From NCBI GenBank assembly GCA_033763555.1, contig JANRKK010000045.1, positions 2,277 to 66,276 on the forward strand: a stretch of DNA of 64,000 bases, in the 5' to 3' direction. A program made the position numbers and the translations under genes. The notes beneath the pieces were generated by a model. It saw only the letters and a list, made by a program, of their open reading frames with translations. It had not been told where the DNA came from and did not search any database. The stretch comes from Alphaproteobacteria bacterium (GTDB lineage Bacteria; Pseudomonadota; Alphaproteobacteria; UBA9219). Below are positions 33,817 through 40,030 of this stretch, piece by piece (within the stretch, counting starts at the first letter, position 1; every line of letters begins with the position of its first letter).

Positions 33817-34356
33817 TTAACGCTTGCTGTACTGGAAGCGACGGCGGGCCTTGGCGCGGCCGTACTTCTTGCGCTCGACAACGCGCGGATCACGGCGCAG
33901 GAATTTGGCAACCTTAAGCGGTGCGCGCAGTTCCGGCTCGAAATAGGTCAGAGCCTTGGAGATACCATGCTTCACGGCACCCGCCTGCCCCGACAATCCA
34001 CCACCGACAACCAGGCATTCCACATCGAACTGATTGGCGCGGTTGGCGACATCGAACGGCTGGTTGACAACCATCTGCAGAACCGGACGGGCGAAGTAGA
34101 TCTTCAGCTCACGGCCATTAACGAAGATTTTGCCGCTGCCCGGCTTGATCCAAACACGAGCGATGGCGTTCTTACGCTTGCCTGTGGCATAGGCGCGGCC
34201 ATGCTTGTCCAGCTTGCGCTCATGCTTGCCGGGTTCAGCCGAAGCCGCCGCGGTAGCAACAACCTGTTCTTTGGCTTCTTCTTTCGCCTTTTCTTTAACG
34301 GTCGCCTTGATGTCGGTCAGCTTGGCAGCTCTGGGTTTGCGCGGAGGTGTTGGCAT
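33817..34356 (-). CDS. rpsI: 30S ribosomal protein S9 (with a Lys/Ala/Glu-rich N-terminal extension)
   Basis: ...[31 protein letters not shown]...[19 protein letters not shown]...[15 protein letters not shown]. The start ATG overlaps the rplM stop (TAATG). Confidence 0.92.
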
Positions 34357-34856
34357 TAGGAAGCCCTCTTGTTCTTGGGATTACGGGCGGCGAAATCAAT
34401 CGTCTTCGGGTTCTGCGCGGCGTGCGGATGTTCCTTGCCCGCATAGACCTTGAGGAAGGTCATCTGACGGCGGCCCAGCGGCCCGCGCGGCATCATACGT
34501 TCAACAGCCTTGGTAATAACCCGTTCCGGATGCGCGCCCGCCAAAATCTTGGCGCGGGTGCGGCTCTTAATCCCGCCGGGATAGCCTGTGTGATAGAAAA
34601 ATTCCTTTTCCTCAGCCTTCTTGCCCGTCATGCGAATTTTTTCGGCATTGATGACAATGACATTGTCACCGCAATCAACCGACGGTGTGAAGGTCGCGCG
34701 ATGCTTGCCGCGCAGAATGGTGGCAATCCCTGCCGCCAGACGGCCGAGAATGACGCCATCGGCATCGATCAGAACCCAGTTCTTTTTGACGTCCTGATGA
34801 CGCAGCTCAAAGCTCTTCGTCTGGACACTTGGTTTAACGCGAATTTTTCCGGCCAT
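34356..34856 (-). CDS. rplM: 50S ribosomal protein L13
   Basis: The start was moved to the internal Met preceded by the RBS AGGGAGA ([42 protein letters not shown]...). The ORF-track start at 34931 is too far upstream. Confidence 0.92.
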
Positions 34857-35066
34857 GTTGATCTCCCTAAACCCGCCTGTGGCGGAGCCGGGTTGATACA
34901 AATTGAGGGAGTCGATGTCAATAAAAATCAAGCAGGACAGCGATAAAATATATGGGGTATTATGATACCCTATATTTAACTATAAGTCTCATCTAATTGA
35001 CAGCCTTATATGTACAGGCATAGCATTCATGAGATTTCATCACACCAAATAAAGAGGGCTTCAATT

Positions 35067-35660
35067 ATGGAATTTACGCAAAATCCAACCCCCACTGATA
35101 TGGCTGCGTTTGTAAAAGAAGCCGTAGACGCAAAAACGAACACTGACTCTCCAGAACGGCAAGCACAATTGGCGGCTAAAGCCCAAGAGCATGCTGCGCT
35201 AGAAGCAAAAAAAGAACCATTTCGAGTTGCCGCGCGGGAAGTTGCCGAAACCATTCTTGGCGGTCTTCAAGCCCTCCCCCTCAATAACCGTGTGATAGAA
35301 GAAAAAAGAATTGTGCTAAATTTTCATATTGTTCCAAATCTCTTTGCGGTGACTTTGGGATCAAGCGACGCAGCTCTTCAAAAGCCTAAAGAAACTGGGA
35401 ATCTGGTAAGCTTCCTAATTCCCGGATGGGAAGGTCGTGTAACTGGCGATCACAGCTGGAACACCCGGTATATGGGATTTAAGTTTGACTGCGTGTATGA
35501 CGACGACAGAAATTTACAACATATTACCGTTAGACGGCATGAAGGATTTGAATCGGCTTTTGGCGACAGCTTAGGTAAATTTTCGTATTCTCCCGAAAGA
35601 CCTGCCGAGATGTACAGAGAACTTGCTGGGCTGTTTACGCGCTACGAATGGAACCGCTAA
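35067..35660 (+). CDS. Hypothetical protein, low-GC orphan
   Basis: 197 aa starting at MEFTQNPTPTD after the RBS AAAGAGGG. GC is ~46%. No recognisable domain. It is flanked by the rplM promoter region and a convergent GT2 gene. Confidence 0.5.
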   Translation: MEFTQNPTPTDMAAFVKEAVDAKTNTDSPERQAQLAAKAQEHAALEAKKEPFRVAAREVAETILGGLQALPLNNRVIEEKRIVLNFHIVPNLFAVTLGSSDAALQKPKETGNLVSFLIPGWEGRVTGDHSWNTRYMGFKFDCVYDDDRNLQHITVRRHEGFESAFGDSLGKFSYSPERPAEMYRELAGLFTRYEWNR

Positions 35661-35669
35661 GCTCAACAA

Positions 35670-36518
35670 TCAGCCTGCGATAATTTTTAGATAAGTCCGC
35701 ACCCAAATGGCCAGATCGAGCAGCCATAGAAATGGCTTTGGATATTCCTTGCCGAAATTCTTGTGGAAATAGCGGATAAAGCCGCGCGCCTTGTGTTTTT
35801 CAACGAAGGCTCTTGTTGCCCTGCTCGTGCTGCCAATATGCGTCACGACCACATCCGGGGCAAAATAAATCTCGCCTCCGGCACAGCGGAGACGCAGACA
35901 TAAGTCCAAATCCTCAACATGGAGGAAATAACCTTCATCGAATCCTGTGATTTTCCAAAAATCCTCGCGTGTCAGGAACATGAACGCGCCGCTGATGGCG
36001 GGTATGGGCGTTAAAGCGGATGGAATAGGTTCTTCATTAAAATTCAGCCGCGCCTTCGGGAAGAAATGATGGAGGCACAGCGCCTCGATAAAAGCCGTCA
36101 TGGGCGTCAACAAAGCGCGGCGGCAACCGCGTTGATCGCTGCCATCCTCATCCAGCAGCCGCGCACCGATCATAAAAGGCCGTTTTAAGCCTGCCGCATG
36201 GGCTTGAAGACGGGTCAAAGCATCCGGTAGCAACAGGCTGTCAGGATTAAGAAAAAGAAGGTGGGTGCCCCCGGCTGCCTTTGCGCCGAGATTACACCCC
36301 CGGCTGAAGCCAACATTGCCATGGCCTGTGACAAAGCGCAGGCGGCTTTCCTGCTCCGCCATGGCTTGCAGCTGAGCAGTAATTTCAGGGGGATTGCCGT
36401 TATCGACGAGGCAGAGCTCCACAGGCTCTGTCTGGGCCAACACACTGGCAATGGCCTGAAACAGCACAGGACCCGTGTAATAGCTGACCATGACGACGGA
36501 GGTTATGGGGGGCGGCAT
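35670..36518 (-). CDS. Glycosyltransferase family 2 (rhamnosyltransferase-like)
   Basis: N-terminus SVVMVSYYTGPVLFQAIASVLAQTEPVELCLVDNGNPPE with GT-A features. It is divergent from rfbCBDA. Confidence 0.75.
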   Translation of the reverse strand: MPPPITSVVMVSYYTGPVLFQAIASVLAQTEPVELCLVDNGNPPEITAQLQAMAEQESRLRFVTGHGNVGFSRGCNLGAKAAGGTHLLFLNPDSLLLPDALTRLQAHAAGLKRPFMIGARLLDEDGSDQRGCRRALLTPMTAFIEALCLHHFFPKARLNFNEEPIPSALTPIPAISGAFMFLTREDFWKITGFDEGYFLHVEDLDLCLRLRCAGGEIYFAPDVVVTHIGSTSRATRAFVEKHKARGFIRYFHKNFGKEYPKPFLWLLDLAIWVRTYLKIIAG

Positions 36519-36530
36519 TGGGATGTTAAT

Positions 36531-36612
36531 CGCTAGTTGCTAGTTGCTAGCATATACAAAACCCGGCAAATTGCTAATCCCCAGCAACTAGCAACTGACA
36601 GCTAGCAACTTA
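36531..36612. promoter_or_regulatory. Composite repeat/palindrome in the divergent GT2-rfbC promoter: direct TTGCTAG repeats (GCTAGTTGCTAGTTGCTAGC) facing an inverted copy (AGCAACTAGCAACTGACAGCTAGCAACT)
   Basis: Read directly from the sequence. It occupies almost the whole 93-nt intergenic space and ends at the rfbC ATG. Confidence 0.5.
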
Positions 36613-37169
36613 TGATCACCGTTAAAGAACTCGCCATACCGGATGTTAAACTACTGATGCCCAAGCTGCATCAGGATGACCGGGGCTATGTCACGGAAAT
36701 TGCCCATGACCGACACCTGCAAGAACTGGGCATTCCTATGAGATTCATGCAGGAAAACCAGTCTCTCTCCCGCCATAAAAACACCGTCCGCGGCTTGCAC
36801 GGGCAGCAACCACCGCATGCGCAGGCCAAGCTGGTACGCGTGCTGCGCGGCAAAATTTTTGATGTCGCCGTGGATGTGCGGCCTCAATCCAAAACCTATG
36901 GTCAATATGTCAGCGCCGTTTTGTCGGAAGATGAAGTCACGCAGATGTTTATCCCGGCTGGATTCCTGCATGGTTTCTGCACATTGGAAGACAACACCGT
37001 CGTGCTTTATAAAATGTCGGATTTCTATGCGCCGGGAAATGAGGTTGGCATTATCTGGAACGACCCCGATGTGAAGATCGACTGGCCCGTTGATCCGTCT
37101 AAAGCCATTCTGTCCGGCAAGGATGAGAAGCTGCCTCGCTTCAAAGATTTTCCCCGTATCGCGTGGTGA
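36612..37169 (+). CDS. rfbC: dTDP-4-dehydrorhamnose 3,5-epimerase
   Basis: 185 aa with the RmlC cupin sequence (...QENQSLSRHKNTVRGLHGQ...). Confidence 0.9.
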   Translation: MITVKELAIPDVKLLMPKLHQDDRGYVTEIAHDRHLQELGIPMRFMQENQSLSRHKNTVRGLHGQQPPHAQAKLVRVLRGKIFDVAVDVRPQSKTYGQYVSAVLSEDEVTQMFIPAGFLHGFCTLEDNTVVLYKMSDFYAPGNEVGIIWNDPDVKIDWPVDPSKAILSGKDEKLPRFKDFPRIAW

Positions 37170-38248
37170 GTTCTGTGCAAACTATTATCGTCACAGGCGC
37201 GGCAGGTTTTATCGGTTCGGCTTTGTGCCGTTATTTGCGCAGCAACAAACTGGCGCGGGTGATCGGTATCGACGCCATGACCTATGCCGCCAGCCGCGAA
37301 GCGCTGGACAGCCTCAAGAATGACCCTGATTTTCGACTGGTTGAAGCGGATATTTGTGACGGCACAGCCGTCATGGAAATTCTGGCCGCCAGCTCACCGG
37401 ATGGCGTTATCCATCTGGCCGCCGAGACGCATGTTGACCGTTCGATCGACAATCCTGGCGCATTCATTCAGGCCAATGTCGTTGGCACCTATGCTATGCT
37501 CGAGATGGTACGCTTTTATCTGGCGGTGATGCCGGAGGAACGGCGTAAGAATTTCCGCTTTCTGCATGTGTCGACCGACGAGGTTTATGGCTCACTCGGC
37601 CCCAAGGGACGCTTTACGGAAGAAACCGCCTATGCGCCAAATTCGCCCTATGCCGCCAGCAAGGCGGCGGCTGACCATCTGGCGCGCGCATGGTACAGCA
37701 CCTTTGATCTTCCGGTACTCATCAGCAATTGCTCAAACAATTATGGCCCCTATCAATTTCCGGAAAAACTCATCCCGCTCTGCATTGCTAAAGCGCTGAA
37801 CGGCGAAAAGCTTCCGATCTATGGCAAGGGAGAAAATATTCGCGACTGGCTGTTTGTCGACGACCATGCCGAAGCGCTGTACACAATCTACAACAAAGGA
37901 CGTCTTGGCGAAAAATACAACGTTGGCGGCGACGCAGAATGGAAAAATCTTGATCTGGTGCATGAGCTTTGCGCAGCGCTGGATGAGATGCTGCCAAAAT
38001 CATCGCATCGCCCACATAAAAATCTAATTACCTACGTCACCGACAGGCCCGGCCATGATGCGCGCTACGCCATGGATTTCACAAAACTGAAGAAAGAACT
38101 GGGATGGACGCCACGCACATCCCTGCGCGAAGGACTGAAGAAGACCGTGGCCTGGTATATCGAGAACCGTTCCTGGTGCGATGACATACGCCTCCGCAAA
38201 TATAGTGGTGAACGATTGGGGCAGCTTTCATCCGCTGTAAATACCTGA
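37163..38248 (+). CDS. rfbB: dTDP-glucose 4,6-dehydratase
   Basis: TGAAGFIGSALCRYL...YAASKAAADHLARAW with RmlB length. It overlaps rfbC by 7 nt. Confidence 0.92.
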   Translation: MVSSVQTIIVTGAAGFIGSALCRYLRSNKLARVIGIDAMTYAASREALDSLKNDPDFRLVEADICDGTAVMEILAASSPDGVIHLAAETHVDRSIDNPGAFIQANVVGTYAMLEMVRFYLAVMPEERRKNFRFLHVSTDEVYGSLGPKGRFTEETAYAPNSPYAASKAAADHLARAWYSTFDLPVLISNCSNNYGPYQFPEKLIPLCIAKALNGEKLPIYGKGENIRDWLFVDDHAEALYTIYNKGRLGEKYNVGGDAEWKNLDLVHELCAALDEMLPKSSHRPHKNLITYVTDRPGHDARYAMDFTKLKKELGWTPRTSLREGLKKTVAWYIENRSWCDDIRLRKYSGERLGQLSSAVNT

Positions 38249-38249
38249 C

Positions 38250-39152
38250 ATGGCGATAAAGCGCATCATGCTTCTGGGTGCAACGGGACAGATCGGGCAA
38301 GCCGTGCGGGCGCAACCCCTGCCTGGCGATTGGCAGCTTGGCGTTTATGGCCGCGCAGAATTCGATGCCACCGACCATCAGGCCATGCAAAGCGCGATAC
38401 AGACTTTTAAACCGGATCTTATTATCAACGCCGCCGCGATGACGGCTGTTGATAAATGCGAAATAGAGCAAGACGCGGCCATGGAAGCGAATTTTGAGGC
38501 TCCGGCCCATCTCGCCGTGCAATGCGGCGCAGCCGACATACCACTCATTCACTTGTCGACGGATTATGTTTTCGACGGCACGGAAAACAGGCCCTACCGC
38601 ACCGATGATGCGATGAATCCGCTCAGCACCTATGGCCAGAGCAAAATGATGGGCGAGGAATCCATCCGGCATGAGCTGGCCTGGCATGTTATCCTGCGCG
38701 TCTCATCTGTGTTCAGCGCCTTTGGCACAAATCTTCTGACCAAAACGCTGCAGATGATTGATGAGCGCGATGAGCTGAAAATCGTCACCGACCAGAAATC
38801 CTGCCCGACCCCGGCGCAGGATATTGCTAAGGCTGTCGTTGTGATGGGCGATGCCATTCTGCGCGGTAAAAGCAACGGCTTCGGTACATTCCATTTCTGC
38901 GGCACGCCGGACGTTACGCGTCTGGAATTCGTCACCGACATTATGAATGCCTATGCGCCTTATACCGCGAAGCGGCCAAAAATCACCCCGGCACTCAGCG
39001 CCGACTTCCCCGGCTTTGCCCAGCGGCCTGCCTATTCCTCGCTGGATTGCAGCCGTATTCAGGAAATTTACGGCCTTACGCAAAGGCCATGGCGCGACGG
39101 GCTGGCTGAGGCTATGGATGTGTTGATGCATGGTAAAAGGAAAGTGGCATGA
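38250..39152 (+). CDS. rfbD: dTDP-4-dehydrorhamnose reductase
   Basis: [12 protein letters not shown]... and a RmlD-like 300 aa protein between rfbB and rfbA. Confidence 0.85.
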
Positions 39153-40030
39153 CAATCAAGAAAGGCATCATCCTCGCGGGCGGCAGCGGCACGCGCCTTT
39201 ATCCTGCCACGCGCGCGATCAGCAAGCAGCTGATGCCCATTTATGACAAGCCAATGATTTATTATTCGCTCTCGACCATCATGCTGTCAGGCATCCGCGA
39301 ATTTCTGCTGATCAGCACGCCACGCGATATTCCCCTGTTCAAGGGGCTGCTCGGCGACGGCAGCCAATGGGGCATCAATATTTCCTACGCTGAACAGGCA
39401 GCGCCGAACGGGCTGGCTGAGGCCTTTATCATTGGCCGCTCATTCATTGGCAATGACAATGTGGCGATGATTTTAGGTGATAATCTTTATTACGGTCAGG
39501 GCTTGCAGGATTTGCTGCCTCAGGTGGCTGAAAAACGATCCGGTGCGACCGTGTTCGGCTATCGCGTTGCCAATCCGGAGCGCTATGGCGTGATTGTTTA
39601 TGACGATGCGGGTAGACCCATCGACATGATTGAAAAGCCGAAAGATCCGCCGTCACGTTGGGCAATCACAGGACTTTATTTCTATGACAATCAGGTTGTC
39701 GAGATTGCCAAGAGCCTGAAGCCCTCACCACGCGGCGAGCTCGAAATCACCGACCTGAACCGTGTTTATCTCAAACAGCAGAATATGGATGTCATACGGC
39801 TGGGGCGCGGTTATGCCTGGCTGGATACCGGAACACATGAATCCCTTGGCACCGCATCAGATTTCGTCCGCATCATTGAACAACGCCAGGGCTTGAAAAT
39901 CGGCTGCCCCGAAGAAATTGCCTTCGCCCGCGGCTATATCAGCGCCGAGCAGGTCCTGAAAATCGTAGGACAAATGGGCCAGACAGAATACGCGGCCTAT
40001 TTATGGGATTTGGTTGATCCAGAACCCTAA
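39149..40030 (+). CDS. rfbA: Glucose-1-phosphate thymidylyltransferase
   Basis: [35 protein letters not shown]... is canonical RmlA. Confidence 0.92.

Follow-up and report, generated by a model that had tools for sequence, protein, structure and literature searches.

The divergent control region between a GT2-family glycosyltransferase gene and the rfbCBDA operon contains a dyad of heptamer repeats that is real and non-random. The best-supported account of its left arm, based on sequence comparison with related loci, is that it represents three tandem copies of the -10 box of a conserved rfbC promoter. With roughly even confidence, we assume that the dyad as a whole is a pair of heptanucleotide microsatellites formed by replication slippage, the left one amplified from the rfbC -10, and that this pair may have remodelled the promoter spacing and the leaders. 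Bacterial microsatellites of this kind are known and widespread; at the GT2/rfbC locus the dyad is lineage-specific. All positions refer to the window, which is the whole stretch of 64,000 nucleotides (64 kb) that was analysed. The features of the locus are as follows:

35670-36518, minus strand: GT2-family glycosyltransferase gene, start codon at 36518-36516 (Pfam PF00535, 6.6e-18).
36518-36523, plus strand: TTGGGA, -35-like hexamer of the putative rfbC promoter, at the same position as TTGAnn of the relatives and overlapping the GT2 start codon; its function is presumed.
36532-36552, plus strand: left array GCTAGTTGCTAGTTGCTAGCA, (GCTAGTT) x 2.7 (TRF: period 7, 2.7 copies, 100% matches).
36545-36553, plus strand: TGcTAGCAT, putative extended -10 (TGnTAnnnT), the only intact one in the spacer, 24 nt from the -35.
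36549-36554, minus strand: TATGCT, candidate -10 of GT2, paired with TTAGCA at 36577-36572 with 17-nt spacing.
36553-36582, no strand assigned: inter-arm spacer (loop), containing the degenerate unit ATTGCTAA at 36570-77.
36583-36610, plus strand: right array AGCAACTAGCAACTGACAGCTAGCAACT, AGCAACT AGCAACT GACAGCT AGCAACT (TRF: period 7, 4 copies, 71% matches).
36612-37169, plus strand: rfbC, dTDP-4-dehydrorhamnose 3,5-epimerase, first gene of rfbCBDA (Pfam PF00908, 2.2e-64).

The intergenic spacer comprises 93 nt (36519-36611), with the GT2 gene on one side (minus strand) and rfbC-rfbB-rfbD-rfbA (36612-40030, plus strand) on the other, and Pfam identifies GT2, RfbC, RfbB, RfbD and RfbA. The GT2 protein is identical to one of an uncultured alphaproteobacterium MAG; it has 874 homologues, hundreds of them with 60-80% identity, and its N-terminus is consistent with the relatives. 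The RfbC N-terminus MITVKEL is likewise common to relatives. Within the spacer, GCTAGTTGCTAGTTGCTAGC faces AGCAACTAGCAACTGACAGCTAGCAACT with 30-31 nt between the arms, in agreement with the distance of about 30 nt given in an earlier note on this DNA. The palindrome of heptads between the two genes described there is also confirmed, but not its three exact TTGCTAG units, as the left array consists of two exact units and one TCGCTAG. The right array repeats the left one in inverted form and takes up the final 28 nt of the rfbC leader; one unit reads CAACTGA. It adjoins the rfbC start but does not end exactly at it, as had been claimed, since the array stops at 36610 and the ATG begins at 36612. 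The inverted repeat has perfect 14-nt arms (36535-48 and 36583-96), and local palindromes (TGCTAGCA and GCTAGC) are found at 36545-52 and 36601-06, with starts 56 bp and centres 55 bp apart. Due to the polarity of the dyad, both divergent genes have CTAGCAA repeats in sense orientation ahead of their start codons. These repeats end 1 nt before the ATG of rfbC and 13 nt before the ATG of GT2, neither with a Shine-Dalgarno sequence, and they are free of start codons, contain stops in all frames and are poor in G. The spacer sequence is identical in a second assembly of the same organism (L001), the only other assembly in this comparison.

The double unit has three matches in the 64-kb window against 0.32 expected, all of them at the GT2/rfbC spacer. 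A single TTGCTAG unit is not enriched in the window (7 against 6.6 expected). The tetranucleotide CTAG is depleted about eight-fold in the window (1-64000): base composition predicts 249 occurrences and a Markov model 51, but there are 32. Of these, 5 nevertheless fall within the 93-nt spacer. Furthermore, the 64-kb window, which is not repeat-rich, has no other heptamer array of 2.6 or more perfect units.

Several other kinds of element were considered. An intrinsic terminator was rejected: a scan of 36300-36800 found no terminator-like site, and the element is located between divergent starts. A miniature mobile element (MITE/REP) was rejected as well, as there is a single copy in the window and a plasmid blastn search with the element gave no match. 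A cyanobacterial origin was likewise rejected: HIP1 (GCGATCGC) is not enriched in the window, with one match against 2.7 expected, and the organism is an uncultured alphaproteobacterium. A perfect 9-nt direct repeat, GGATGTTAA, occurs next to the GT2 start (36521-36529) and in conserved rfbC codons (36641-36649). We rejected it as a target duplication because it is partly conserved rfbC coding sequence and an estimated 0.2 pairs or so are expected by chance; the repeat is probably a chance occurrence.

The promoter was analysed in 22 loci with the divergent GT2/rfbC arrangement, the window included, and in two further close GT2 relatives. For this purpose the spacers of the relatives were lined up at the GT2 start codon in the direction of rfbC. 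All 17 heptad-less relatives of the first set and two more contain, in this orientation, TTGAnn followed by a 17-19 nt spacer and TAnnnT. The TTGAnn hexamer overlaps the GT2 start codon and matches TTGACA at four to six of six positions in these 19 relatives, and six of the 17 in the first set have caTTGACA. In TAnnnT the three defining positions are invariant and the inner ones vary; the chance of finding it at the observed spacing is 0.046 per random sequence. All 12 loci with a spacer of 18-19 nt have a TGn directly upstream of TAnnnT, and none of the seven with 17 nt. This phylogenetic footprint has the sequence characteristics of an extended -10 promoter of the sigma-70 type. The conserved TCTGCTAG / TCGGCTAG motif, which at first resembled an operator half-site, is explained by the same extended -10 signature.

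In the window, candidate -10 boxes follow in tandem downstream of the -35-like hexamer: TAGTTG with a spacer of 10, TAGTTG with a spacer of 17 and TGc-TAGCAT with a spacer of 24. The intact -10 is located at 24 nt (17 + 7) because only the last of the three copies retains the final T and thereby the TAnnnT form. The hexamer TAGCAT is also present in one relative (L135). A scan with the promoter consensus detected no promoter in the window spacer, and the extended -10 that lies at 17-19 nt in 19 of 19 relatives is found here 24 nt from TTGGGA. The earlier note had placed the repeats in the divergent control region, which fits well with a left arm that appears to coincide with the -10 box of the conserved rfbC promoter. 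Taking the intact -10 as the working box, the rfbC transcription start site (TSS) would lie near 36560, and the left arm would consequently be promoter DNA outside the rfbC mRNA. For GT2, TTAGCA and TATGCT with their 17-nt spacing match at 8 of 12 positions, which is under the scan threshold of 9 of 12, and the candidate -10 overlaps that of rfbC. This pair can be proposed as a GT2 promoter only as a weak inference, and a search for a GT2 promoter in the relatives resolved none.

Most likely, replication slippage would have amplified the extended -10 box (TGcTAGnnT) of the conserved rfbC-operon promoter threefold. The copy number of the left arm would then set the promoter geometry in 7-bp steps: two units would restore the canonical spacing of 17 bp between -35 and -10, and with three copies the TGn extended -10 would have to suffice for transcription. 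The right array would be an inverted copy that supplies the rfbC leader up to the ATG. The main effects are expected on promoter spacing and on both leaders, and expression would presumably be affected through them. Simple slippage gives no account of the origin of the right array, which counts against this reading. In addition, slippage should be rare with 2.7 perfect units, and the two assemblies are identical at the locus. In favour of the reading, a Chryseobacterium site with the TTGCTAG unit varies between 3.4 and 10.3 copies.

The earlier note had made its proposal depend on conservation in relatives. Nineteen relatives share the divergent gene pair but have no arrays, among them the sister locus L002 and L005 as the next relative; a degenerate version occurs only in L131, which is not a sister. 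In detail, T-type heptads (GGTTGCC AGTTATT) adjoin the GT2 start in L131, and on the right side CTAACCA CTAGCAA CTAACAA CCAGCAA CTCA leads directly into the rfbC ATG, so that this degenerate dyad occupies the same two positions. Trees of GT2, RfbC and the concatenated proteins group the window with L002 and L131 with L128. As both partners are without arrays, the arrays were either gained twice or turn over quickly. We rejected the possibility that the dyads of the window and L131 are one inherited element, which according to the trees would require several losses. The recurrence in L131 hints at selection for the dyad, or at exchange, rather than at mutational noise.

The spacer is plastic in the relatives, and L002, L133, L134, L138 and L141 contain unrelated inserts of 150-310 nt. 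Nested G+C-rich hairpins (catgcccgcgaaagcgggcat..., caaacgggattccggc...gccggaatg) are located in the GT2/rfbC spacer of L002 (2329-2500), the 311-nt spacer of L141 contains a G/C-rich palindromic element, and in L003 a gene for a 71-aa DUF1653 protein (2213-2428) is inserted between GT2 and rfbC. On the other side of GT2, rplM-rpsI follow within 120-180 nt in the relatives. In the window, rplM (34356-34931) and rpsI (33817-34356) are both on the minus strand, and an extra stretch of about 740 nt (34932-35669) lies between GT2 and rplM. It contains an ORF of 216 aa (35010-35660) on the other strand, for which Pfam gave no match.

An exact search for CTAGTTGCTAGTTGCTAG with one genome per species revealed at least 120 loci; by a rough estimate, a random 18-mer would have fewer than 20 matches in the 596 Gb. 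The arrays among the matches listed come from Acidobacteriota, Planctomycetota, Bacteroidota, Cyanobacteria, Proteobacteria, Firmicutes and others and mostly have 3-5 units, with a maximum of 15. None of 129 TTGCTAG arrays among these matches is located inside an ORF, as expected because CTAG at period 7 gives stops in all frames on both strands. Perfect arrays in the TTGCTAG-bearing loci listed are dominated by period 7 (186), compared to 2, 7, 2 and 1 for periods 5, 6, 8 and 9. The loci L006-L125 (0.86 Mb) contain 72 further perfect heptamer arrays built from 46 different units, e.g. GGCTAGT, TTGCTAA, GGGGCTA and CAGTTGT; many other heptamer units there are one or two substitutions away from TTGCTAG and directly adjacent to TTGCTAG arrays. 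The copy number of 3.4-10.3 was observed at an orthologous Chryseobacterium site between conserved flanks. In five Chryseobacterium species (L020, L031, L051, L068, L097), the same spacer upstream of a conserved 130-aa protein (MITDKEFTLRLIRQL...) with no Pfam match contains CTAGCAA arrays with conserved flanks and about 3 to 10 units. A literature search found no paper that mentions the TTGCTAG unit.

Dyads make up about 17% of the TTGCTAG arrays listed. Those with the polarity of the window (TTGCTAG arm first, CTAGCAA arm second) account for 14 of 114 arrays listed against a background of 13 of 2261, and the opposite polarity for 5 of 114. Most dyads of other phyla occupy spacers between co-directional genes; in another alphaproteobacterium (L037) the dyad lies between divergent ORFs and ends with AGCAACTTATTT-ATG. 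Based on crude gene calls for the arrays listed, CTAGCAA is in sense orientation in 56 cases and antisense in 26 within 150 nt upstream of a gene (p = 0.0012), compared to 48 and 42 downstream of genes. This cross-phylum bias suggests a role at the RNA level, for which the microsatellite reading gives no account. Many of the arrays listed abut an ATG without a Shine-Dalgarno sequence, and several others lie upstream of a normal one. An EF-G gene (L055, 6320 onward) and a gene for a 1101-aa multi-haem cytochrome c (L012, 4117-7422) each have a sense CTAGCAA array that ends 5 nt ahead of the ATG, in both cases with no Shine-Dalgarno sequence between. No functional theme was found among the genes downstream of the arrays listed (EF-G, cytochrome c, rhodanese, GT4, HAD, NAD(P)HX dehydratase, transglutaminase).

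Two readings place the function of the repeats in the RNA. The earlier note had suggested a hairpin on the rfbC mRNA. If transcription of rfbC or GT2 started upstream of the distal arm, a hairpin of about 90 nt would hide the start codon and control translation or mRNA processing. This is thermodynamically plausible: the plus strand of the spacer folds with -32 kcal/mol as RNA (z = -3.1) and with -16.7 kcal/mol as single-stranded DNA (z = -3.3), the A of the AUG and codons 2-3 are paired at the base of the stem, and two U-G wobbles favour the plus-strand RNA over that of the minus strand, whose fold is less exceptional (z = -1.6). The predominance of dyads between co-directional genes in other phyla, where transcription is expected, the fold of the L037 dyad (z = -5.2) and the precedent of the hmw heptamer hairpin in a 5'-UTR of H. 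influenzae, which acts via RNase III (PMC12721329), point in the same direction. However, the left arm appears to be the conserved -10 box and a start downstream of this box leaves the arm out of the mRNA; a long hairpin on the mRNA would require that transcription begins upstream of the box. The 52-nt leader from the putative TSS, which is largely the right arm, folds weakly (-12.3 kcal/mol, z = -1.7), and the strong fold of the whole spacer thus does not extend to this presumed rfbC 5' UTR. The complementarity of the arms follows from the repeats themselves and is hence no evidence of selection for pairing, the fold of L131 is no better than shuffles (z = -1.2), and a search with Rfam covariance models gave no match in the spacer, the sole hit being a chance-level one elsewhere (E = 0.34). 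Taken together, we regard such a hairpin as improbable. We also consider it unlikely that sense CTAGCAA acts in the leader as a binding site for the ribosome (S1) or a single-strand RNA-binding protein and thereby allows translation without a Shine-Dalgarno sequence, with the dyad serving both genes. The position of the sense repeats before both start codons of the window, the upstream orientation bias and the many arrays that abut an ATG without a Shine-Dalgarno sequence, that of EF-G among them, are in line with it, and L131 and L037 end with AGCAACT 2-5 nt before the ATG. The TAACTGA repeats of Beggiatoaceae provide a precedent (PMC4679880); CAACTAG differs from TAACTGA by three transitions, and the window has its one CAACTGA. 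Initiation without a Shine-Dalgarno sequence does not need the repeats, though, as rfbC is without one in every relative, with or without repeats, and a Shine-Dalgarno-like motif precedes the first in-frame start in just 15 of 57 long ORFs of the window. The arrays upstream of a normal Shine-Dalgarno sequence and the crude gene calls behind the orientation counts also argue against this role, and no binding factor is known. A wider version, in which TTGCTAG/CTAGCAA together with TAACTGA and kin (YAACYRR) form a cross-phylum, start-proximal cis-element for such initiation and dyads of fixed polarity are two-way modules, selected in L131, seems quite unlikely.

The remaining readings concern the DNA. 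In the multi-site operator suggested in the earlier note, a dimeric regulator would act on both divergent genes through the TGCTAGCA / GCTAGC palindromes or the heptad arrays. This reading could draw on the two local palindromes centred on GCTAGC and on a CTAG-containing motif that is conserved at this position in relatives despite the rarity of CTAG. But the conserved motif behaves like a -10 box, with T, A and T invariant, variable inner bases and a TGn that co-varies with spacer length, and the 7-bp period would put successive sites on different faces of the helix. The 19 relatives are without arrays, no DNA-binding domain was found among the scanned neighbours, and the same arrays adjoin unrelated genes elsewhere (EF-G, cytochrome c, HAD, GT4). 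A regulon, for which the note had proposed a search, did not emerge from the 64-kb window either, where searches with the double unit, YAACYRR x 2 and spaced AGCAACT patterns revealed no second site beyond the GT2/rfbC locus. A dedicated multi-site operator is therefore unlikely, and we judge this reading very improbable. It is conceivable, if not likely, that the arrays are neutral debris, i.e. products of slippage and template switching that affect the expression of neither GT2 nor rfbC. Their lineage specificity and the plasticity of the spacer in relatives, with its inserts of various origin and the DUF1653 gene of L003, would agree with this. On the other hand, the amplification would shift a conserved -10 box by 7 bp relative to the -35, which can be expected to have an effect, and the dyad recurs at the same place in L131.

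In the reading that we prefer, a microsatellite pair built on a promoter box, this single locus would illustrate the birth of a 7-base microsatellite from a working promoter element, with a -10 box displaced in 7-bp steps ahead of surface-sugar (dTDP-rhamnose) genes; it does not appear to be a new regulator-operator system. Phase-variable promoters carry repeats in the spacer between -35 and -10, TA in the hif genes of H. influenzae and poly-G at porA of Neisseria. The window resembles them in that the number of repeat units would set the distance from -35 to -10. In those promoters, however, units of 1-2 nt form long tracts that slip often, whereas here a 7-nt unit that holds the -10 box itself is present three times and switching should be rare. 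We did not classify the dyad as a phase-variable contingency locus, as it has 2.7 perfect units and no variant between the two assemblies. Nor is it an STRR in the strict sense, a class with many arrays per host, compared to one in the 64-kb window.

Heptamers are the most abundant long simple-sequence repeats (LSSRs) in many bacteria, possibly due to polymerase slippage (Mrazek et al. 2007, as summarised in PMC4679880 and PMC4692102), and they include tandem heptamers of cyanobacteria such as Calothrix PCC 7601 (cited in PMC4692102). The dyad shares with heptanucleotide LSSRs the period of exactly 7 and the tandem, intergenic arrangement outside ORFs, and in the TTGCTAG loci heptamers outnumber other periods and different heptamer arrays abut each other. 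It differs in that the window contains one such locus in 64 kb and that the array seems to be an amplified promoter box. The GGGAATC repeats of Xanthomonas are also intergenic heptamers (Rehm et al. 2015, PMC4692102). Some of them are arranged, like the window dyad, as inverted pairs, which can fold into stem-loops or cruciforms, and at a given site close relatives differ in the length and sequence of the repeats (PMC4692102). These repeats are G-rich and form quadruplexes, whereas TTGCTAG cannot form a G-quadruplex.

In H. influenzae, hmw1A has a phase-variable (ATCTTTC)n repeat in its 5'-UTR and a hairpin that is cut by RNase III (PMC12721329). Both systems have a heptamer repeat upstream of a surface-structure gene, with the repeats as one arm of a long hairpin. 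At hmw1A, however, the repeat has 11 or more units, the transcript is proven and processed by RNase III, and changes of copy number have been measured, in contrast to the 2.7 and 4 units, the two identical assemblies and the probably untranscribed left arm of the window. The closest parallel at start codons is offered by the TAACTGA direct repeats that precede start codons without a Shine-Dalgarno sequence in forward orientation in Beggiatoaceae, cyanobacteria and Bacteroidetes (MacGregor 2015, PMC4679880). There, the corresponding sites of relatives are free of repeats, and 7-nt indels distinguish strains (PMC4679880). The window repeats share the forward orientation a few nucleotides before the ATG, the missing Shine-Dalgarno sequence, the lack of a theme among downstream genes and the repeat-free relatives. 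They differ in sequence, as CAACTAG has 4 of 7 positions in common with TAACTGA, in number, with hundreds of loci there and a dyad known here as a single locus, and in arrangement, as the genome in question has 169 direct sets and one indirect set (PMC4679880) and the window a dyad. With at least 120 loci and an orientation bias upstream of genes, the TTGCTAG family can be placed as a second heptamer family beside the still unexplained TAACTGA phenomenon.
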